40,210 nt of DNA, from the UHGV virus genome UHGV-0388459; one strand, 5' to 3'. The notes beneath the pieces were generated by a model, which saw only the letters and a program-made list of their open reading frames with translations, was not told where the DNA came from and did not search any database. This document shows positions 984 through 24,774 of the stretch, piece after piece. The stretch comes from a virus. Position numbers and translations under genes: made by a program. How positions within the stretch are numbered: the first letter of the stretch is position 1; each line of letters begins with the position of its first letter.

Positions 984-1229
984 ATGTCTCAAAATTTCGG
1001 ATTAAGCTATTCTGAACTCGACACCTTACATAACATTGATTCCGAACAGGCAGCTCATAACATCGCACTTGCTTACGTAACTACTGTTGCTCAAAATTCC
1101 AAATTAACTAACGGTGAAGATGTGATTATGACAGATGTTCTGTCTCTAGCTAATCAATACGCTCAGGCATATCAATATGCTTACAACTTCATTGAGCATG
1201 AAAACGATGTTATAAATCATTCGGAATAG
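984..1229 (+). CDS. Hypothetical small protein (81 aa), the only plus-strand gene in this block
   Basis: ATG with strong RBS AAAGGAGAAAAG. No recognisable motif. Its 3' end overlaps the convergent gene 1210..1440. Confidence 0.55.
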   Translation: MSQNFGLSYSELDTLHNIDSEQAAHNIALAYVTTVAQNSKLTNGEDVIMTDVLSLANQYAQAYQYAYNFIEHENDVINHSE

Positions 1230-1440
1230 TACTTATTTTTGTATCTGGACTGCGTTTATACATTTTTTCCATAACGCTGTCCAGATGCTTTCTTGCAATC
1301 AGGCTTTCGGCGATTGTCAAATCACCCATTGCTGACACGCACTCGCTTACGGCTTTAAGAATTTTTTCTTTGTCATATCCACACGCTCTTAAACTGTAAT
1401 CATCAAGTCCGCCTGTCAATTTCTTCATCCTCTTCCTCAC
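1210..1440 (-). CDS. Hypothetical small protein (76 aa)
   Basis: ORF with ATGA start-stop overlap to the Cro-like gene at 1437..1440. Confidence 0.5.
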   Translation of the reverse strand: MRKRMKKLTGGLDDYSLRACGYDKEKILKAVSECVSAMGDLTIAESLIARKHLDSVMEKMYKRSPDTKISTIPNDL

Positions 1441-1685
1441 CTCGCTTCGTCTTCATCTGTTGCAAACAGATAATCAAATTTCACCTTGAATATCTTGCAC
1501 ATTTTCTTCGCTTCGAGTGCAGTGAATTTCCCATTTTTTTTCTTATTCTCATAAGATACTCTTGAAATTCCGACCATATCTGCCATTCGCTGATTTGTGT
1601 AAGAATGTCTTGCCTGCTCAGCATCTAAATTTTTAAACAATTCCTCTTCGCTCCCTTCTGCTATAATATTGGTTGCGGACTGCAA
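1437..1685 (-). CDS. Cro-like XRE-family HTH transcriptional regulator (82 aa, TTG start)
   Basis: HTH_XRE-like segment MADMVGISRVSYENKKKNGKFTALEAKKMCKIF. Divergent from the repressor gene. RBS AAAGAGG lies 5 nt upstream of TTG. Confidence 0.65.
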   Translation of the reverse strand: MQSATNIIAEGSEEELFKNLDAEQARHSYTNQRMADMVGISRVSYENKKKNGKFTALEAKKMCKIFKVKFDYLFATDEDEAR

Positions 1686-1884
1686 ATCGCCTCTTTGCCC
1701 TAACTCAATCCCAAAATAGGACTGAGCTTCTCCGAAAATATGAAAAGTTCGGATATAAACTTCTGTATTTTACTTACACTGGTAATGACCTCTCCACAAT
1801 GTCAGCCCATTTAGAAAAGGAACTGTAGTGTTCCAGTAACTGTCAACCTCGCTCCAATGCAGTCCGCGTTTCAAAATTTGCATT

Positions 1885-1957
1885 TCGCAAACTTTAATTA
1901 TACTATAATTGCTTATTGCAAACTTGTCAATAGTTTTCTTTTCATTTTGCAAACTTT
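1885..1957. promoter_or_regulatory. Three operator-like repeats (tYGCAAACTTK) at 1885-1895, 1916-1926 and 1947-1957, spaced exactly 31 bp apart
   Basis: Read directly. The TTGCAA/TTTGCAAA core is palindromic. The sites overlap the two divergent promoters. Confidence 0.5.
1902..1930 (-). promoter_or_regulatory. Leftward (lytic, Cro-side) promoter TTGACA-17-TATAGT
   Basis: Reverse complement of 1925-1930 is TTGACA and reverse complement of 1902-1907 is TATAGT, with a 17-bp spacer. Operator copy 2 overlaps the -35/spacer. Confidence 0.45.
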
Positions 1958-1961
1958 TTTA

Positions 1962-1990
1962 TTGACACTTTTTCAATACGCAACTATAAT
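1962..1990 (+). promoter_or_regulatory. Rightward (repressor-side) promoter TTGACA-17-TATAAT
   Basis: Consensus -35 at 1962-1967 and consensus -10 at 1985-1990. RBS AGGAGG 2001-2006 precedes the ATG at 2016. Confidence 0.6.
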
Positions 1991-2015
1991 CTTAATTAAC
2001 AGGAGGTACTAAAAT

Positions 2016-2324
2016 ATGGGTGAGCACTTCAATGAAAATTTAAAAGAAGCAAGACTAAAATCTGGGCTATCTCAGAAAGATCTTTCAGAAAATATAGGTG
2101 TTGCAAAATCAACATATTCTCTATATGAAAGCGGAAAACGCGAGCCAAATGTAGATACGATTAAAAAAATAGCATCTGCATTAAATGTTTCTGCCGATAT
2201 GTTACTCGGACTTGAAGCTGAACCAACCACTCTTGCCGCCCACTTTGACGGTGATGAATACACAGAAGATGAAATGGAAGAAATCAAAAACTTCGCTGCA
2301 TTTGTAAAGAACAGAAGAAAATAA
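2016..2324 (+). CDS. cI-like prophage repressor, XRE-family HTH (102 aa; no S24 peptidase domain)
   Basis: LKEARLKSGLSQKDLSENIGVAKSTYSLYESGKREPNVDTIKKIASALNVSADMLLG is a classic HTH_XRE. The C-terminus is acidic. Confidence 0.8.
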   Translation: MGEHFNENLKEARLKSGLSQKDLSENIGVAKSTYSLYESGKREPNVDTIKKIASALNVSADMLLGLEAEPTTLAAHFDGDEYTEDEMEEIKNFAAFVKNRRK

Positions 2325-2372
2325 GACATTTTTATTGGACAGATAAGCTGATATGCTGTAGTGGGAGGTGTT

Positions 2373-2843
2373 ATGCATATGAACACATACGAATGTTTAC
2401 AAGACGAAGCCTGCAGGGACAGTATAAATGTTATAGATTATACATTTCACAGTGACCGGATAAAAGGATTGTACTGTGATGGTACTGTAGCAATCAAAAA
2501 AGATATGAATACAATTCAGAAAACCTGCACACTGGCTGAAGAGCTTGGACATCACCACACATCCGTTGGTGATATTATAAATACAAATTCCGTACAAAAC
2601 CGCAAGCAAGAACGACAGGCTCGTTTGTGGGGATACAATAAATTAATTGGACTCATGGGGATTGTCCGGGCATTTAATGCCGGATGTCAAAACCAATATG
2701 AAATTGCAGACTATTTAGATGTTACAGAAGAATACCTGCAAGAATGCATTAACTGCTATCAGAGTAAATATGGAATCTGCACTACTGTAGATAACTATGT
2801 TATTTACTTTGTTCCTTATCTGACAGTTACAGAAATGATATAA
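2373..2843 (+). CDS. ImmA/IrrE-like (DUF955) anti-repressor peptidase homolog with an atypical motif
   Basis: Position immediately after the XRE repressor, as in the ImmR/ImmA arrangement. Motif LAEELGHHH sits where ImmA has LAHELGH. ATG at 2373 after GGGAGG; the track start at 2361 is a GTG. Confidence 0.55.
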   Translation: MHMNTYECLQDEACRDSINVIDYTFHSDRIKGLYCDGTVAIKKDMNTIQKTCTLAEELGHHHTSVGDIINTNSVQNRKQERQARLWGYNKLIGLMGIVRAFNAGCQNQYEIADYLDVTEEYLQECINCYQSKYGICTTVDNYVIYFVPYLTVTEMI

Positions 2844-2919
2844 CCCCTCGTGGGATTATATAAATGAATAAGTGGTGTTATTCATAAAGAACGGTTCTTA
2901 TTAACAAAGGAGAAAACAA

Positions 2920-4512
2920 ATGGGTATAGGGGATATTTTTAAAATCAAGCAATTCAAAGAACGGATTGCCAGTCTTGAAGCGGAAAATCAAACGCTTTCG
3001 CAAAATAATACCGACTTACAGTCAGCTACTACTGAATTGAGAGGAAAACTTTCTGAAATTGGTGGATTTGACTACTATAAAGTAAAATCCATGACCGAAC
3101 AGATGGAAAAAGAGTACGCTGTAAAACAAAGGGATCTGAGTATAGAGTATGATGTAAAAGTAGATACTCTGAAAAAGGAATACGAAAGAAAGCAGGCAGA
3201 AGCAGAAAAAGGCTTACGAGAGCAACTCGTCCAGCTTGAAAGAATGATTTCTGACCGCACAGACAAATCGCAGTCGTTACAGGAAAAAATTGCAGAAGAA
3301 ATGCTTCAGGAGAGTAAGCTTGCCAAACAGATCAAGACCCAAACTAATAAACTCGGACGATCAAAAGAGTTGGTAAAAGCAATCAATTACAGTTTGGACA
3401 ATTTCTTTAATTATGATCCTGCAATCAGTTCTTTAAAATTTAGCGAAAAAGATTTAACCGATTTGGAGGAAATCAGTCCTTCCGTTATCCTAAAACTCCA
3501 TTGCATGGATGTAAAAGATCTCCGCAAAGCCTACCGTCAAAATGATAAGCAAATCAATGATCTTTTAGCAAAATATTCTGCCCGGTATACTACTAAAGCG
3601 AATCAGGCAATTTATAAACTTATGGTCATTGCTCTTAGAGCAGAACTTCAAAATATCCTGTATAACCTTAAATTTGAAAAGCTTGAAAAATCTATTGATG
3701 ATATCAAAGATGTAACTCATAAATATCTTGAGATTGCAGGAAATGGAAATCAGAGCATCGCAGGAACTCTTACCAAATTTATTGGAGAAATAGAGTATTT
3801 GTTTATTAATGCAGCAAAGATTGAATATAATTACTACGTTAAAAAAGAACAGGCTCGTCAGGAACAACTTGCTATCCGTGAGCAAATGAGACAGGAAGCC
3901 GAGGAACGTAAAGCACTGGAAGCTGAACGTAAAAAAATAGAACAGGAAGAATCAAAATACAATTCCGAAATTGAAAAGCTGAGAACCCAACTCACCAGTG
4001 CTAAAGACGAGGAGGTTGAAAAATTAAACGCAAGAATCCTTGCACTACAGGCTCAACTTGCTGACGTTGCTATAAAGAAAGACGAAATTTCTACTCTTGC
4101 CAATGGAAAAGCTGGTAACGTGTACGTTATCAGTAATCTTGGATCTTTTGGCGAAAATGTATTTAAGATTGGAATGACCCGAAGACTCAATCCACAGGAT
4201 CGAGTAGATGAACTTGGTAATGCATCTGTTCCATTCCGTTTTGACGTACATAGCTTTATTTTTTCTGATGATGCAGTTGGTCTTGAAAACAAACTTCATA
4301 CTATCCTGACTGACAAACGTGTAAATAAGGTAAATATGAGGAAAGAATTTTTCAACGTATCACTTGATGAACTGGAACAACTTGTTACAGGAATAGAACC
4401 TACAGCAGAGTTCAACAGGACTATGGCTGCCGAAGAGTTCAGACAATCACAATCAACAGATAGTGTTTATTCGTCTGATTATACTTATAGTGATGACGAA
4501 GACGATGAATAA
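2920..4512 (+). CDS. DUF4041-like coiled-coil protein with a C-terminal T5orf172 (GIY-YIG-like) domain (530 aa)
   Basis: About 390 aa are rich in heptad/charged residues. The C-terminus GNVYVISNLGSFGENVFKIGMTRRLNPQDRVDELGNASVPFRFDVHSFIFSDDAVGLENKLHTIL...EFF matches the T5orf172/MUG113 pattern. RBS AAAGGAGAAAAC. Confidence 0.7.
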   Translation: MGIGDIFKIKQFKERIASLEAENQTLSQNNTDLQSATTELRGKLSEIGGFDYYKVKSMTEQMEKEYAVKQRDLSIEYDVKVDTLKKEYERKQAEAEKGLREQLVQLERMISDRTDKSQSLQEKIAEEMLQESKLAKQIKTQTNKLGRSKELVKAINYSLDNFFNYDPAISSLKFSEKDLTDLEEISPSVILKLHCMDVKDLRKAYRQNDKQINDLLAKYSARYTTKANQAIYKLMVIALRAELQNILYNLKFEKLEKSIDDIKDVTHKYLEIAGNGNQSIAGTLTKFIGEIEYLFINAAKIEYNYYVKKEQARQEQLAIREQMRQEAEERKALEAERKKIEQEESKYNSEIEKLRTQLTSAKDEEVEKLNARILALQAQLADVAIKKDEISTLANGKAGNVYVISNLGSFGENVFKIGMTRRLNPQDRVDELGNASVPFRFDVHSFIFSDDAVGLENKLHTILTDKRVNKVNMRKEFFNVSLDELEQLVTGIEPTAEFNRTMAAEEFRQSQSTDSVYSSDYTYSDDEDDE

Positions 4513-4704
4513 TTAAAAAACCGCCCCTTCGCCAAAAGGAGCGGTACTGGAAGAAACACACGCCAATGTGCTTCTTTTGGTAACTCCGAAGAGATACACT
4601 AATGCCAATGAATATTGTATCATCTTCGGAGCAGTCACGCAAGCAGAACAGCCGTTCTGTGCTGGCTGTTATTTTTATACTCAAAAACAGAAAGGAAGAT
4701 GATT

Positions 4705-5799
4705 ATGTGGGTAGAAGAAAGAAAAACCGGATTCAAATTTGTTGAACGCTACACCGACCCGATGACAGGAAAGACCCGGAGGGTTTCTGTTGTAATGGAG
4801 AAAAATACGGCACAGTCAAGAAAACTGGCTGCTGTTGCACTGTCTGAAAAGATTGACAAGGCATTACTGCCACAGGTGGACAAGATCCGCTTGAAAGACC
4901 TGGTGGATTTATACAGAAAAGAACAGTTCCGAACACTTAAGCAGTCAACCTATCGCAGGAACAGTGCCGTGTGCAATACGCTAATGAAGATACTGGATCC
5001 TGAAATCTATGTTGACAAACTCACCGCAGGTTACATCCGTGAGCGATTTCTCAATACTGGTCGGGAACACAGTACATTAAACGAATGGATGATTCGTTTA
5101 AAAGCCTTGCTCCGCTGGGGATATCGCAATGACTATATTAAAGACATATCCTATCTCAACAAAATAGAAAGATTCAGCGATATTCCACACCGTCAAAAGA
5201 TTGAAGATAAGTTTCTTGAATCTGCCGAACTGAAAGAATTGCTCTCCGGCATGACAATTCTAAAATGGAAACTCCTTACCGAGTTCCTTGCACTATCCGG
5301 GTTGCGATTCGGTGAAGCCGCTGCTCTCACGAAGTCTGACGTTGATTTGAAAAGCAGGAAAATCCACGTGACTAAAACCTACGACAGTGTGGCTGATATT
5401 ACTACAACGCCCAAAACAGCCTGTTCCGTACGTGACGTATATATTCAGGACGAATTGCTTACAGTTTGTAGAAACGTGCTTCTAGGCTGTCACAGTGGCA
5501 CTGTAGTTTCAATTAGTGGCGTATTCTTTCCCGGTACAATCCGGGAACATATTGAATTTGATTGCTATGCCAAATACCTAAGAGAAACATCTCAGAGAGT
5601 TATTGGACGCAGGATCACGCCGCATACACTCAGGCACACTCACGCAAGTTTGCTGATGGAACAGGGAATTGATATTGATAGCATATCCAAAAGACTTGGA
5701 CATAATGACAGCAGGATTACCAGAGAGATCTATCTGCACGTAACGAAGAAACTCGAAGAACAGAGAAATGCACAGATCAAAGAATTAAAAATTTTATAG
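4705..5799 (+). CDS. int: Tyrosine site-specific integrase (phage integrase family)
   Basis: C-terminal catalytic region ...ITPHTLRHTHASLLMEQGIDIDSISKRLGHNDSRITREIYLHV carries the R/H-x-x-R/Y box. N-terminus MWVEERKTGFKF is typical. The ATG at 4705 has better RBS spacing than the in-frame ATG at 4699. Confidence 0.85.
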   Translation: MWVEERKTGFKFVERYTDPMTGKTRRVSVVMEKNTAQSRKLAAVALSEKIDKALLPQVDKIRLKDLVDLYRKEQFRTLKQSTYRRNSAVCNTLMKILDPEIYVDKLTAGYIRERFLNTGREHSTLNEWMIRLKALLRWGYRNDYIKDISYLNKIERFSDIPHRQKIEDKFLESAELKELLSGMTILKWKLLTEFLALSGLRFGEAAALTKSDVDLKSRKIHVTKTYDSVADITTTPKTACSVRDVYIQDELLTVCRNVLLGCHSGTVVSISGVFFPGTIREHIEFDCYAKYLRETSQRVIGRRITPHTLRHTHASLLMEQGIDIDSISKRLGHNDSRITREIYLHVTKKLEEQRNAQIKELKIL

Positions 5800-20342: not shown

Positions 20343-20724
20343 CACAATATCCCACCTTCCTGGACAGCCATCCCAGCGGAAGCAGATAGGTCCGTGCAAC
20401 TTCGTAAGCTTTGCGGGATGCGACCGCTTCTGCCGTCTCTCCGTCCACCTGCTCGTTTACATAAGTCACACTGTATCCGTCCGTATTTTCCGACTTTACA
20501 GATCCATTTCCCTGCTGATTTTTCAGGTCGCAAGAATAATAAATCTCTGCAACTGCACATACAGCATCTTTTACGGTATCGTTTTCACAAGCAAAAATAT
20601 CTCCGTGCATATAAGTCAGATGCCTTATATAGGCTTCTGCTTTTTTTTCTGCTTTTGCAAATTTTTCAAGTGGAATCAGCTCACCACCGTATTCAGACAA
20701 ATAATAGAAATGATCCGCATACAT
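20311..20724 (-). CDS. Gp6-like head-tail connector protein
   Basis: Start at MYADHFYYLSEYGGELIPLEKFAKAEKKAEAYIR with RBS GGAAGGAG. Phage_connect_1-like N-terminus. Confidence 0.5.
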   Translation of the reverse strand: MYADHFYYLSEYGGELIPLEKFAKAEKKAEAYIRHLTYMHGDIFACENDTVKDAVCAVAEIYYSCDLKNQQGNGSVKSENTDGYSVTYVNEQVDGETAEAVASRKAYEVARTYLLPLGWLSRKVGYCDAYKCSDHAL

Positions 20725-20741
20725 ATTGTCTTGCTCCTTCC

Positions 20742-21722
20742 TTATTCTCCCGCTTTCAGGATCGCAAACGGGCATCTCTTGGTCTTATCTTTTGCAAGAG
20801 CATTGATTGGATTCGGGATTTCCCATCCAAGACGCATCACCGCACGAAGAGCAATCATATCATTCTGCATCAGGTTGTATGCGATAGTGCCATCTGTGTT
20901 CTGAATCACACCTTCCGTGAACAACTTGAAGGTAATATCCTGTCTGATGGAATATACAAGCTGAGAGAAATCTCCTGAAATCATCAGTGCCTTTGATTTG
21001 TCAAACGCTCCGTTGTTTGGGAAATTCATCGGAGAGCCATCTAAAGCATACTGCGTTGTTCCCTGCAGATCCTGTTTGAACAGCGGATCACCATTCGCAT
21101 TCTTCAATCCCCTGAGCTTTGCCCTCATGGAGATATCTGCCATGTGACCATTCACAAAGTAGCCGGATCCCTCGACTTTTGCGATGACACCATCTTCTGC
21201 CATAATCTTGTCATAAAGGCTGTCAGATGCTCCGAGTGTTACGATTGCACTCGCCTTTGTTGCAGTTGCAACAACATCTTCTCTCCATGTTGACGGCTTA
21301 TTTTCTCCAAAAAGCACCGCTCCATCAATGACTTTTCCAAATGCTTCTGTTACTCTTGGCTTTACTTCTGACCAAATATCGTATTCTGAATCATCCAATA
21401 CAGCTTCTGGAATCGGAACAATTACCGCAATTTCTTCTGCGGTGATAAATTTCTTGTCCCATGCCTGCTTTGTTGTTTTCTTCTGACCGTTATCGCCGTT
21501 TACAAAATAAGCGATCGGCAGCATATCCAATACAGGCATCTTGTACTGCTTACTGGTCATATTTGCAAGCTTACGCCCTCTTGACAGAACCGCTGACTGT
21601 GCGATTGTTCCCTGGATGATCTCGTTGGATTCCTGAATCGGAATTAAAGACTCTGCCCCGCTACGATCAATGATATTTGTGTCTGCTTCAAACAATTTTA
21701 AATTCATTCTGTTTCTGTTCAT
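20742..21722 (-). CDS. Major capsid protein (HK97 fold)
   Basis: 326 aa. Position after the scaffold gene. Typical MCP size and composition (MNLKLFEA...). Confidence 0.8.
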   Translation of the reverse strand: MNRNRMNLKLFEADTNIIDRSGAESLIPIQESNEIIQGTIAQSAVLSRGRKLANMTSKQYKMPVLDMLPIAYFVNGDNGQKKTTKQAWDKKFITAEEIAVIVPIPEAVLDDSEYDIWSEVKPRVTEAFGKVIDGAVLFGENKPSTWREDVVATATKASAIVTLGASDSLYDKIMAEDGVIAKVEGSGYFVNGHMADISMRAKLRGLKNANGDPLFKQDLQGTTQYALDGSPMNFPNNGAFDKSKALMISGDFSQLVYSIRQDITFKLFTEGVIQNTDGTIAYNLMQNDMIALRAVMRLGWEIPNPINALAKDKTKRCPFAILKAGE

Positions 21723-21734
21723 CTTCTACCTCCA

Positions 21735-22337
21735 TCACTTTCTTGCTGCAGCACGGATACGTTCATTGATAGAAGCATTCATGCTTCCACCAGCTCCCTC
21801 CGAAGAGCTTCCTGAAGACGTAGACATCCGATACGTGCTGCCTGTATATTTCGGATTTTCTTTCAAATACTGTTCTGCAGCTTTTTCAAATGTTGTCTTG
21901 TCGTTTACAAGCTTCGATACCTTGAACATGACATAATCAAGATCCTCTGTCTTCACGCCTTTACCTGACAGAAATTTCTCATTTTTCATCTGCTGAACTT
22001 CCTTCAAAGCGTCATCACGTTCTTTCTGCAGCTTTGCCGTGTCCGGCTGATTTGCTGCACGTTCTGCCTTGAATCTTGTGATTGCTTCTGTGACTTCTCC
22101 CTCTGTCATTCCCTGACCACGGAAAAAGCTTGCAAGAGCTGCACGTTCCGACTTGCTTGCCCTGGCACTTGCAATTTCTTCCAGCTGTTCATAGGTATAA
22201 GTTCCGGAATTGGAAGCTCCGGATGTGCTTCCAGCGGATCCATTACCGCTGTTCCCAGTCCCGGCATTTCCACTCTGTCCATTAGAGCCAGCTCCGCTGC
22301 CGTCCTCGAAAAGCTGTAACATCATTCTTTTTCTCAT
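21735..22337 (-). CDS. Scaffolding protein
   Basis: 200 aa. Gly/Ser/Asn-rich low-complexity N-terminus followed by a helical charged region. Lies immediately upstream of the MCP. Confidence 0.6.
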   Translation of the reverse strand: MRKRMMLQLFEDGSGAGSNGQSGNAGTGNSGNGSAGSTSGASNSGTYTYEQLEEIASARASKSERAALASFFRGQGMTEGEVTEAITRFKAERAANQPDTAKLQKERDDALKEVQQMKNEKFLSGKGVKTEDLDYVMFKVSKLVNDKTTFEKAAEQYLKENPKYTGSTYRMSTSSGSSSEGAGGSMNASINERIRAAARK

Positions 22338-22392
22338 TTCTACCTCCGTTTATGCTTCGTTGAGCTCCCGAGCTTTTAACGCCTTCACGTTT

Positions 22393-22420
22393 TGGGCAAA
22401 AGAAAAACACCCCTCAGGGT
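22393..22420 (-). terminator. Intrinsic terminator-like hairpin between the Prp and scaffold genes
   Basis: Minus strand reads acaccc-uga-gggugu followed by UUUUCUUUUG. Confidence 0.4.
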
Positions 22421-22425
22421 GTCTC

Positions 22426-22713
22426 CTACAAAAATGTTATACAATTATATTCCCGGTTGATATCTGTCAATCCGAGAAACCACGAATCCAGTAGCAACTT
22501 CCCTCTGTCAGAAAGCCGCTCCCATTCGATTACGGTTCTTCCGCTCCCGGTATCTGCCCTGATCCGGTCACCTGTCAGATCATTCAGCGAATTGATCAGG
22601 TTGCAGGTGAGAGCAGATACCGCTGCACATGCCCGGTCAATACCATCTGACCCTTTTCGGCAGGCATGGCCTTTTAATGCAAGCATGTCCTCTCGGACTT
22701 TCACCTCAATCAA
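22426..22713 (-). CDS. Prp-like cysteine protease (DUF464), a likely prohead/scaffold-processing protease
   Basis: KGHACRKGSDGIDRACAAVSALTCNL matches the Prp GHA...G.DIVCAAVS.L signature. Confidence 0.6.
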   Translation of the reverse strand: MIEVKVREDMLALKGHACRKGSDGIDRACAAVSALTCNLINSLNDLTGDRIRADTGSGRTVIEWERLSDRGKLLLDSWFLGLTDINREYNCITFL

Positions 22714-22776
22714 ACAATCACTCCTTTACATTTCCGGTCATTCCCCGCCGGTGGGAGATATCGGATCACCGCCTTT

Positions 22777-23226
22777 CTATGGATAGTCGTTTGCCATCAT
22801 TTTCTCGAGATACCATTTTTTTAATTGTTTTTCATTGTCAATCTGTCGCTCTATCATTTCGATTTCGTTATCGATCATTCTGATCTGTTCTACAATGTAT
22901 CGCTGGTCTTTCTCGTTGTCATGCCAGTCTAAAATAAAATTTACGAGAGTACTAAACTGCAGATTGATTGTAGTCCTATATCTTCTTAAAAAATCTGGAA
23001 ATACTCTTTTGATAGCTATGTAAAGGTAATCACAATCCACTTCTTTTTTCGGTTCAAACACTGCAAATCGGCTGTCTATGTTCCCAGCTTCCTTGATCTG
23101 TCCGACGAACTCATCGACTGCACTCAATTTAATAAAGCATGTACCGGCTTTATATTTCTTTCCTGATACAGCTCTCTCAACAATGCACACTTCACTGATA
23201 TTTCTTTTTCTGCATCTTAATTTCAT
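22777..23226 (-). CDS. Type I RM specificity-subunit-like (half-S, single TRD) protein, possibly a remnant
   Basis: 149 aa. The C-terminal helical region DNEKDQRYIVEQIRMIDNEIEMIERQI resembles the HsdS conserved coiled-coil. Overlaps the methyltransferase stop (ATGA). AT-rich. Confidence 0.35.
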   Translation of the reverse strand: MKLRCRKRNISEVCIVERAVSGKKYKAGTCFIKLSAVDEFVGQIKEAGNIDSRFAVFEPKKEVDCDYLYIAIKRVFPDFLRRYRTTINLQFSTLVNFILDWHDNEKDQRYIVEQIRMIDNEIEMIERQIDNEKQLKKWYLEKMMANDYP

Positions 23227-24449
23227 GTCCAGCTCAACTCCAACTGATCATATTGTTTCTTTTCTGTTTTCCTTCTTTGCTTTGGATTTAAAATGATCTT
23301 ATGCATCTCAATGGCATTCATATCCTCAGCGTTTCCAGTTAAATCCTGCAGCATTTTATATAGCTCGTCTTTAACTTTTTTCTCTTCTTCGTCAATTTCT
23401 CTAAGATTCGTCAAAATCTTTCGTACATCTGGCAAAGGTTCATGCACGAAGCTGTCTACATACCTTGGTATGTTCAAATTGAAATCATTCTTTTCAATTT
23501 CCGAATAACTCGTAATATGCGAGTATCTCTCCACTTCTTGTCTGTTTAAAAAAGTATCTACAACTTTACCGGTCTGCTGTTCTGTCATATCGTTTTGTGC
23601 AGATTTTTTTATGAAATCTTTGCTCGCATCTATAAAAAGTATGTCCGGAGAATCATATTGCAAAATTAAAACGAAAACCGGAATACTTGTATTTAAGAAC
23701 AACTTATCCGGAAGTCCTATTACCGCATTGATTAAGCGCTCTTGCACTAACCATTTTCGGATATCTCCTTCACCTGCCCCACGGAATAAAACACCATGCG
23801 GAAGAATTGCGATCAGTCGCCCGCCTCTGTTTAGATGCTCTAATCCACGTAATATGAATCCATAATCTGCTTTACTTTTCGGTATTTTATGTCCCATGAT
23901 TCTCATCTCATCCGCCTCCGGAAATTTCATGGAATACGGTGGATTCATGATTACATTATCAAAACATCCTGCTTCTTGTCGTTCCTGTAAGGATACGATA
24001 CTGATACCGCCCCGCTCTTCAAGTAAGTAGGTTTCCTGTACTGTATTCCTCAGACAATCCGCCTTGCTTATCGTGCCTTGCATACCGTTCATACATGCGT
24101 CCAGAATGGCAAATGGAATCGTCCTTTCAGAAAATTCCTGTTCGTTAATTTCAATCCCACGTTTTAATGCAGCCATTTTACTCAGAGCTCCTGTTCCGGA
24201 ACACATATCCAAACAAGTACCGTCAATCATTAGATCGGCTACAATAGAGCAGATGCAATCGGGTGTAAAATCTTGCTTTAAACTTTTTCTATCTCCCTGC
24301 TCTTCCTGGAACATATCCCGAATATCGCAAGAAATTTGTTCTTTAATCTGCGTGATAGTCTTTTCTGCATCCGGTGATAATAACATCTCCATTATTTTGT
24401 CCGGAAGCCGGTAAGATTCTTTTACGTCAAAAAACTCCTGAAGTGTCAT
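23223..24449 (-). CDS. HsdM-like N6-adenine DNA methyltransferase (gamma class)
   Basis: Motif I LDMCSGTGAL and motif IV NVIMNPPYS. Start at MTLQEFF with RBS GAGGAGAGG. Confidence 0.7.
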   Translation of the reverse strand: MTLQEFFDVKESYRLPDKIMEMLLSPDAEKTITQIKEQISCDIRDMFQEEQGDRKSLKQDFTPDCICSIVADLMIDGTCLDMCSGTGALSKMAALKRGIEINEQEFSERTIPFAILDACMNGMQGTISKADCLRNTVQETYLLEERGGISIVSLQERQEAGCFDNVIMNPPYSMKFPEADEMRIMGHKIPKSKADYGFILRGLEHLNRGGRLIAILPHGVLFRGAGEGDIRKWLVQERLINAVIGLPDKLFLNTSIPVFVLILQYDSPDILFIDASKDFIKKSAQNDMTEQQTGKVVDTFLNRQEVERYSHITSYSEIEKNDFNLNIPRYVDSFVHEPLPDVRKILTNLREIDEEEKKVKDELYKMLQDLTGNAEDMNAIEMHKIILNPKQRRKTEKKQYDQLELSWT

Positions 24450-24516
24450 ACCACAACCTCTCCTCGCCTTAAAAATGGGTACAAAAATACCACTCACTCT
24501 CTCGAATGGGTGGTAT

Positions 24517-24774
24517 CTATTCAATTTGTTTCATTTCATCTTCTATTTCTTCTCTTTTCCAACCTTCCTCTGAGAGAATATCTAAGATTTCTTCCGGCTC
24601 ACACAATATCTCTTCCAATTTCCAAATTCTTTCACGCAAGTGTGTTCTTCTGACGGCAAATTCTATTTCTTCATCAGAATCCCCTAGCCTTCTAAAAACA
24701 TCTTTCATTTCCTCATCTTCAATTTCCTGAAGTTTTTTATCGATATCAGGTGTATCTGGGTCAAACATTGTCAT
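24517..24774 (-). CDS. Small highly acidic protein (85 aa), a candidate immunity/inhibitor partner of the upstream metallopeptidase domain
   Basis: About 35% Asp/Glu. Start overlaps the stop of the MuF fusion gene. Confidence 0.45.
   Translation of the reverse strand: MTMFDPDTPDIDKKLQEIEDEEMKDVFRRLGDSDEEIEFAVRRTHLRERIWKLEEILCEPEEILDILSEEGWKREEIEDEMKQIE

Follow-up and report, generated by a model that had tools for sequence, protein, structure and literature searches.

A compact two-subunit, Type I-like methyltransferase cassette in the head operon of virus genome UHGV-0388459

Type I DNA methyltransferases have an M2S1 subunit composition, and a specificity (S) subunit that has been cut to one target recognition domain (TRD) and one helix homodimerises and recognises symmetric targets, for example GAA N7 TTC (PMC3874165). 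The natural 'Type 1 1/2' enzymes M.AhdI, M.BsaBI and M.PshAI consist of two modification (M) and two S subunits, and mutations in the N-terminal part of HsdM turn M.EcoKI from a maintenance into a de novo enzyme (PMC3874165). An engineered half-HsdS has also been found to dimerise and to be active (PMC6158711), and the orphan methyltransferases of phages are expressed on exit, protecting the exported DNA (PMC12707154). Here we analysed a pair of genes, M and S, that lie within the head-morphogenesis operon of the virus genome UHGV-0388459, a gut prophage; "the window" refers throughout to the whole stretch of 40,210 nucleotides. The pair encodes an HsdM without its N-terminal domain and a half HsdS, and on balance we consider it probable that together they form a self-contained, mobile and restriction-less methyltransferase cassette.

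By analogy, the closest known kind of system is the 'Type 1 1/2' M2S2 methyltransferase such as M.AhdI, present here as a phage orphan. As described for M.AhdI, M.BsaBI and M.PshAI (Loenen et al. 2014, PMC3874165), the window pair has separate M and S genes, an S composed of a single TRD and a dimerisation helix, and an M that is a gamma-class N6-adenine methyltransferase related to HsdM; it would accordingly be expected to assemble as 2M+2S on a symmetric, interrupted-palindrome target. The described enzymes accompany a Type II endonuclease on bacterial chromosomes or plasmids, whereas the window pair is a phage orphan, with an N-terminally truncated M (408 aa) and a very small S (145-149 aa), M.AhdI being compared here by its description. 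The missing partner of such a pair need not, by this analogy, be HsdR, as M.AhdI-type M2S2 enzymes partner Type II endonucleases.

Canonical Type I methyltransferases (EcoKI, EcoR124I and 3lkd, with the HsdS structures 1yf2, 1ydx, 3okg and 5ybb) are the closest matches to both subunits in sequence and in fold, and share motifs I and IV, the C-terminal helix of M and the coiled-coil helix of S. Unlike these systems, the window pair has no HsdR, one TRD instead of two, an M without the ~140-200 N-terminal residues and a TRD that is conserved. Truncated or engineered half-HsdS proteins (EcoDXXI-deltaC, EcoR124I-delta50 and the M-half-S of S. aureus CC398-1) likewise contain a single TRD and conserved region, homodimerise as a full S and recognise palindromic bipartite targets, but these were derived in the laboratory, or arose by spontaneous mutation, from full Type I systems with HsdR, whereas the window family is natural, widespread and phage-borne. 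Phage orphan methyltransferases such as P1 Dmt, T4 Dam, the multispecific C5 methyltransferases of Bacillus phages and M.EcoGII resemble it in being phage-encoded without a cognate nuclease, and are thought to act on DNA that is soon to be exported. Those named are Type II-like enzymes of a single chain whose targets are often short or degenerate, whereas the window enzyme is two-subunit and Type I-derived, presumably with a long bipartite target.

A phage methyltransferase is an ordinary kind of gene, and this is an unusually compact and previously unannotated form of it. As the S family is missed by Pfam and NCBIfam, phage genes annotated as 'type I M subunit' look like broken fragments when they actually belong to complete two-subunit enzymes, and recognition of the pair would improve phage annotation and the reading of gut-metagenome methylomes. 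At 47 and 18 kDa, M and S are among the smallest natural Type I-style pairs in this analysis, which is of value for structural work and specificity engineering, and near-isogenic phages with and without the pair offer a natural comparison for the worth of a phage-borne methyltransferase.

The M and S subunits and their family

M (METHYLTRANSFERASE) matches the Pfam family N6_Mtase (1.3e-49) and the PADLOC model MTase_I (4.6e-65), with motif I (DMCSGTGAL) at M residues 81-89 (window 24209-24183) and motif IV (NPPYS) at residues 169-173 (window 23945-23931). Its best solved relative is the Type I HsdM of S. thermophilus (PDB 3lkd, 1e-50), followed by EcoR124I HsdM and the M1 and M2 chains of PacII; identity to the S. 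thermophilus protein is ~55% over residues 157-374, as estimated by eye from the alignment. With a profile built from 28 family members, the alignment covers residues 200-515 of EcoR124I HsdM. In the same way, the NCBIfam model TIGR00497 (hsdM) matches M only at profile positions 197-513, and for this reason the score of 125.5 falls below the cutoff of 242.75; HsdM_N gave no Pfam match in M. In the AlphaFold2 (AF2) model of M (predicted local distance difference test score, pLDDT, 85.9), four short helices precede a Rossmann core, and a long helix at the C-terminal end spans 342-369; each of the top 21 Foldseek matches to this model is a Type I HsdM or a PacII M chain. The earlier note on this DNA, which had been made from the sequence alone and described M as Type I-like from motifs I and IV, is thus borne out by the family and fold matches. 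M is an HsdM that lacks the ~140-200 N-terminal residues of the canonical protein, and its homologues are 400-420 aa long. Translation of M begins at an ATG at 24449, 7 nt after the ribosome-binding site AGGAGAGG at the left end of the cassette. A TTG-initiated open reading frame (ORF) of 433 aa, reaching 24524, was dropped as the start of M since its 25 added codons are backbone DNA common to relatives without the cassette; a TTG start is also at odds with the homologues, which begin at ATG.

The 149-aa product of S had been read in the earlier note as a half S subunit, with an HMM for Methylase_S as a means of checking it. Pfam Methylase_S gave no match, nor did any other model in Pfam or NCBIfam, and the similarity to S subunits came instead from other searches. 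A phmmer search of PDB returned two matches only, both of them HsdS (1yf2, 0.01; 1ydx, 0.85); PHROGs returned phrog_2668 (9e-8), and 16 Specificity_I models of PADLOC were matched, the best at 8e-7. With a profile of 30 homologues, the PDB matches strengthened to 1.1e-7 for the HsdS 1yf2, 0.0026 for 1ydx and 0.012 for 5ybb_D/3okg. The AF2 model (pLDDT 90.6) consists of a small beta/alpha globular domain at ~1-103 followed by a single 41-residue helix at 105-145. Its top Foldseek matches are the HsdS chains 5ybb_D, 1ydx, 1yf2, 3okg and EcoR124I S (7bst_A), with template modelling (TM) scores of 0.6-0.7 on the query, and lower-ranked matches include Esub1 (8vsr), PacII S and BsaXI S. The conserved segment RTTINLQ...W-H..E..Q corresponds to the HsdS motif at the end of a TRD and the start of a conserved region. 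No second TRD or second conserved region is present in the 149 aa, the model having one TRD and one helix. S is therefore a half HsdS, with one TRD of ~100 aa and one coiled-coil helix of 41 residues.

This protein belongs to a large family, with 92 close members in a 90%-clustered database, nearly all of 143-152 aa. Clustering at 50% identity gave 1089 clusters (E <= 1e-3), 256 of them reaching E <= 1e-10, with lengths mostly of 140-160 aa; length and motifs are conserved. An M homologue lies directly upstream of S in every locus that covers both (69 viral plus metagenome or genome loci, ~70), the two ORFs overlap by 1-44 nt in 69/70 loci, and the pairwise identities of M and S are correlated at r=0.98 over 2415 locus pairs. 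In about a dozen representatives of 553-606 aa, the mini-S is naturally fused to the C-terminus of an M homologue; two of these, P0246 and P0257, were read directly, and the former is phage-borne, lying between replication genes and terminase. A single-chain M~S fusion lies at L162 6831-8543, and natural fusions of this kind occur in phages. Such fusions would be expected to act as homodimers. In two further proteins of 341-348 aa (P0237 and P0354), which match Pfam Methylase_S, the mini-TRD takes the position of TRD1 and precedes a helix, a canonical TRD2 and another helix; the contigs that encode these two-TRD proteins were too short or uninformative as to context, and the upstream 480-aa product in L164 had no N6_Mtase match. 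Fusion in these forms supports both the partnership of M with S and the view that the small domain serves as a real TRD.

Canonical HsdS proteins have hypervariable TRDs and conserved helices. The present family is the opposite, with mean identities of 64% for the TRD, 60% for M and 53% for the helix, which leaves a small but real puzzle over the target that such phages need marked. Comparison across the family found no locus pair with similar M but dissimilar TRD, as TRD swapping would produce. Since the TRD is conserved and unswapped, the family has probably retained a single target or a small set of closely related targets. In one lineage, that of a Lachnospiraceae metagenome-assembled genome (MAG; L006/L156, CAJKWK010000002.1), M was called as two ORFs (173 and 236 aa) next to an intact S, a split that is probably a frameshift and may have inactivated the cassette there.

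A restriction partner was sought in the window and in related loci. The earlier note's statement that no HsdR is present was correct for the window, in which the sole ORF of >650 aa is the tape-measure protein (PF10145) and the other large ORFs encode TerL, the portal, MuF, a DUF927 primase/helicase-type protein, the integrase and a T5orf172 protein. It also held for ~78 S-bearing loci, in which ORFs of >=600 aa within 10 kb of S, checked by cluster members, included no HsdR; their clusters comprise tape-measure, PcfJ-like, MuF, VapE-like, PolA, SNF2/N6_N4-MTase fusion and ABC ATPase proteins, the annotation of one 622-aa ORF in L156 lying outside this survey. No companion Type II endonuclease was found either, the neighbours in the window being an acidic 85-aa protein and Prp and those in other loci phage structural, replication or lysis genes. 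Of the components of a complete Type I restriction-modification system, the pair thus has the motifs and fold of HsdM, and HsdR, HsdM_N and a two-TRD HsdS are absent.

Insertion in the window and occurrence in other phages

The earlier note had proposed that the genes were horizontally acquired within the head operon, and a portal-based search that recovered 80 related loci provided empty sites at which this could be examined. Two of these loci, L081 and L154, are near-isogenic with the window in the portal (98%), full-length MuF (98-99%), acidic protein (98-100%), scaffold (95-98%) and capsid (95-97%), yet contain neither M nor S, the acidic gene leading straight towards Prp. In blastn and MAFFT alignments the left breakpoint falls at window 24470, with a terminator-like hairpin 20 nt upstream of it, and the right breakpoint, relative to L081, at 22798. 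In place of the 1671-bp cassette, L081 has 184 bp that hold most of an intact 67-aa ORF, and L154 has 48 bp together with a variant Prp N-terminus. The L081 ORF ends in FDGKSLSVERR, and the window retains an ending ..NDGKRLSIERR in a different frame over the 3' end of S; the frame of S reads into this remnant and so acquires the C-terminus ..ANDYP, where homologues end in ..KMMV. This asymmetry, with a remnant ORF and an ANDYP tail in the window, favours an insertion in the lineage of the window over a deletion in the relatives. M and S are missing from 60/62 relatives in which the MuF-to-Prp interval was resolved, the other 2 being window-type contigs. M+S is a horizontally acquired insertion within the head operon, and it took the place of most of the 67-aa ORF resident there.

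In the empty sites the slot lies at ~12629-12832 in L081 (the 67-aa ORF, which has no Pfam match) and at 12621-12668 in L154, and in other relatives it is occupied by a single ORF or a pair of ORFs (88-113 aa). The interval between MuF and Prp is a gene-replacement hot spot.

The GC profile along the window, for which the earlier note had proposed a sliding-window calculation, is not flat: the cassette has a GC content of 0.384 against 0.437 for the window, a modest dip at the 10th percentile of same-size windows, and the C-terminal part of MuF with the acidic gene, at 0.343, is the lowest same-size stretch in the window. The AT-rich block at 22777-25600 that the note took for one acquired island is real as a dip (GC 0.370, 3rd percentile). 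It is not a single acquisition of 2.8 kb, as the MuF tail and the acidic gene occur, at 98-100% identity, in L081 and L154, which lack M and S. The C-termini of MuF (beyond ~residue 385) and the small ORFs downstream differ among relatives. Since these two cassette-free phages have both the MuF tail and the acidic gene, the AT-rich block is two independent variable modules lying side by side.

Phage context surrounded M+S in all sampled loci. The pair is found between the portal and the ClpP protease of an HK97-type head module (L004-6, L156), between TerL and the portal (L032), directly ahead of TerS-TerL (the L015 group) or two small ORFs ahead of TerL (L017, L158). In the largest context group (L022 and others) it ends the replication region a few kb before TerL, often by a Dcm-type C5 methylase. 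Further positions are after PcfJ- or ParB-type genes, by an integrase, and just before a choline-binding endolysin. Adjacency to a Dcm-type C5 cytosine methylase was seen in L022 and ~20 similar loci, and N6_N4 methylases, one with a fused SNF2 helicase domain, are encoded a few genes upstream of the pair in L014 and L047; phages of these types accumulate methyltransferase clusters upstream of terminase.

The same pair is present in the Streptococcus prophages IPP23, IPP16 and phiZJ20091101-4, in the late-early region upstream of terminase, with an S-like ORF of ~141-143 aa that overlaps M and is ~35% identical to the window S. In those records M is annotated as 'type I restriction-modification system, DNA-methyltransferase subunit M' and S as 'hypothetical protein'. 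The named hosts are Lachnospiraceae (a Lachnospira MAG and Bilifractor porci) and one MAG binned as Bacteroidaceae. A scan of the genome collection with the S profile yielded 3 loci only, in a Lachnospiraceae MAG, Bilifractor porci and the Bacteroidaceae-binned MAG, and as all three are phage-like they constrain the host only loosely. A megablast search of 20700-28100 against the phages of INPHARED gave no match, and hence the window has no annotated close relative there.

Proposed function and competing explanations

We consider the probable role of M+S, by analogy with the systems described above, to be late de novo self-methylation of the phage genome for anti-restriction. M and the half-S would be made by coupled translation and would most likely assemble, as in the analogous enzymes, into a complex of 2M+2S of ~130 kDa, in which the single long helices of the two S chains pair antiparallel and take over the part that two conserved regions play in a normal HsdS. 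A symmetric bipartite target (an interrupted palindrome) would be read by the pair of identical TRDs, and each M would place one N6-methyladenine (m6A) per half-site, so that both strands would be marked. Expression from the late head operon, without a promoter of its own, would coincide with the replication and packaging of progeny DNA, and progeny genomes would exit pre-methylated and shielded from those restriction enzymes of the next host that have a matching or overlapping target. We infer the M2S2 stoichiometry, the symmetric target, the late expression and the anti-restriction benefit; for the stoichiometry, the natural M~S fusions and a two-TRD protein that contains this TRD offer indirect support. 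The absence of the N-terminal domain of M fits an enzyme that never partners HsdR, and may confer de novo rather than maintenance activity.

Late expression is expected because the cassette lies in a late operon and lacks a detectable promoter. A consensus scan of 21600-25000 returned 9 promoter-like sites against 7.3 +/- 2.4 expected, which is chance level in a weak test, and no site in the 67-nt upstream gap; apart from its two translationally coupled ORFs, the cassette supplies no more than a ribosome-binding site. The earlier note's term for the cassette, a moron, is apt in that these are extra genes between neighbours that are adjacent in related phages. In the strict sense the term is not supported: the promoter and terminator of its own that would allow autonomous expression in the lysogen were not found by this weak consensus scan, and the one terminator-like hairpin nearby is part of the backbone.

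Several observations weigh against the proposed explanation. A scan for symmetric bipartite motifs (half-sites of 3 or 4 nt and spacers of 2-9, other spacings serving as the control) found no significant depletion or enrichment in the window (best p 8.6e-4 over 448 tests), and thus no motif avoidance that would point to a target. The TRD is as conserved as M and shows no swapping, and one fixed specificity would protect only against enzymes with that target, a poorer fit to an arms race. The cassette is dispensable, being missing from near-isogenic phages, and the hairpin just upstream clouds the level and timing of its expression. A fixed TRD fits protection against one endonuclease specificity that is common in the hosts, and it leaves room for a use intrinsic to the phage.

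Such a use would be methylation for the phage's own functions or for lysogen epigenetics, in the form of pac or packaging marks, late-gene timing or a change in host expression, and we regard it as unlikely. A single fixed target is what the conserved and unswapped TRD would suggest, and most lineages have the cassette within the packaging/head module or a short way ahead of it, with three independent in-module slots and many loci directly before TerS or TerL; P1 Dmt, which acts at pac, is a precedent (cited in PMC12707154). Packaging and development nevertheless do not need M+S, given the near-isogenic phages without it, the remaining positions are in early or replication regions, beside an integrase or beside an endolysin, and the consensus scan revealed no promoter of its own for expression in a lysogen. 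Quite improbable, in our estimation, is a reading in which the N-domain-less M and its TRD of ~100 aa stand for a large family, peculiar to phages and conserved over more than 1000 sequence clusters, of minimal M2S2 adenine methyltransferases with fixed specificity, whose one conserved target serves the phage itself and not mainly anti-restriction, for example as a packaging licence, in late-gene timing or as a 'self' mark among co-resident prophages. If true, a phage-serving target would explain both the undiversified TRD and the repeated landing in or by the packaging/head module.

We give very little credence to the possibility that M+S, acting in trans with the HsdR of the host or a different nuclease, builds a restriction enzyme of phage-chosen specificity and thereby excludes competing phages or attacks host DNA. 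M is nearest to a genuine Type I HsdM, as the by-eye identity to the S. thermophilus protein illustrates, and engineered half-HsdS methyltransferases restrict once HsdR is supplied (PMC6158711); however, the entire HsdM N-terminal domain is missing, no R gene occurs in the ~70 loci, the late-operon position leaves no time for exclusion, and cutting of unmodified DNA would strike the phage's own replicating DNA. Strict synteny, ORF overlap, the co-evolution of M with S and the natural M~S fusions likewise count against an S that is independent of M, as a DNA-binding protein or an Esub1-like decoy, and against a pair that is the decaying remnant of a Type I system, as does a family of more than a thousand clusters with conserved length and motifs. 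Esub1 does appear among the structural matches (its binding to HsdM being reported as unconvincing, PMC11754733), S has no Pfam Methylase_S match, and one lineage has a split M gene, but we judge either version to be very improbable.

Gene layout and further observations

The features of the locus are collected in Table 1; the coordinates of S and M given in the earlier note were exact. Every gene from TerL through the major capsid is on the minus strand, and the start of S overlaps the stop of M by 4 nt (ATGA).

Table 1. Features of the head operon and of the inserted cassette, in window coordinates
Feature	Coordinates	Strand	Remarks
TerL	28086-29444	minus	Terminase_3
Portal	26674-28089	minus	SPP1-type
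MuF-type minor head protein	24774-26672	minus	Phage_min_cap2; variable C-terminal ATLF-like metalloprotease-type domain
MuF C-terminal ATLF-like domain	~24774-25514	minus	GC 0.339
Acidic protein	24517-24774	minus	85 aa, pI (isoelectric point) 4.3; 3' of MuF; context, outside the cassette
Terminator-like hairpin and T-run	24490-24509	minus	backbone; just upstream of the cassette
Inserted M+S cassette	22799-24469		1671 bp, GC 0.384; breakpoints relative to cassette-free near-isogenic phages
M gene	23223-24449	minus	408 aa, 46.9 kDa; gamma-class N6-adenine DNA methyltransferase
S gene	22777-23226	minus	149 aa, 17.9 kDa; half HsdS
Right junction, last S codons	22777-22798	minus	remnant 3' end of the resident 67-aa ORF, in another frame
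Prp cysteine protease	22426-22713	minus	directly downstream of the cassette
Scaffold	21735-22337	minus	
Major capsid	20742-21722	minus	

Alignment showed that the hairpin is kept in cassette-free relatives. It falls within the presumed single late operon, between the acidic gene and the following head gene, and may be an attenuator or an RNA-processing/stability element.

The MuF protein is itself variable. Its ~residues 386-632 resemble a metalloprotease of the ATLF type, with an HEMGH motif and a Pfam ATLF match (1.4e-5) that is under the family cutoff, and the C-terminus together with the small ORFs that follow looks like a MuF polymorphic toxin/immunity-type module. In L107, L124, L130, L132, L133, L134, L141 and L151, the MuF gene is split at ~residue 249 and 282-322 by an insert with ORFs of 65-97 aa and 203-238 aa, which may be an intron/homing-endonuclease-type insertion or an intein-like element.

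Elsewhere in the window, the early region encodes on the minus strand (31927-32373) a 148-aa protein with a Lar_restr_allev domain (1.2e-9, above cutoff). In E. coli prophages and phage lambda, Lar/Ral proteins relieve Type I restriction and enhance modification, and from its domain match this protein may be a second anti-Type-I device of the phage. A second low-GC region (0.35-0.38) occupies window 1000-4500, by the tyrosine integrase (4615-5799), and contains on the plus strand, opposite to the phage genes, a 530-aa protein (2920-4512) with a C-terminal T5orf172/MUG113 (GIY-YIG-like) domain, which may be prophage-end cargo or a defence gene.

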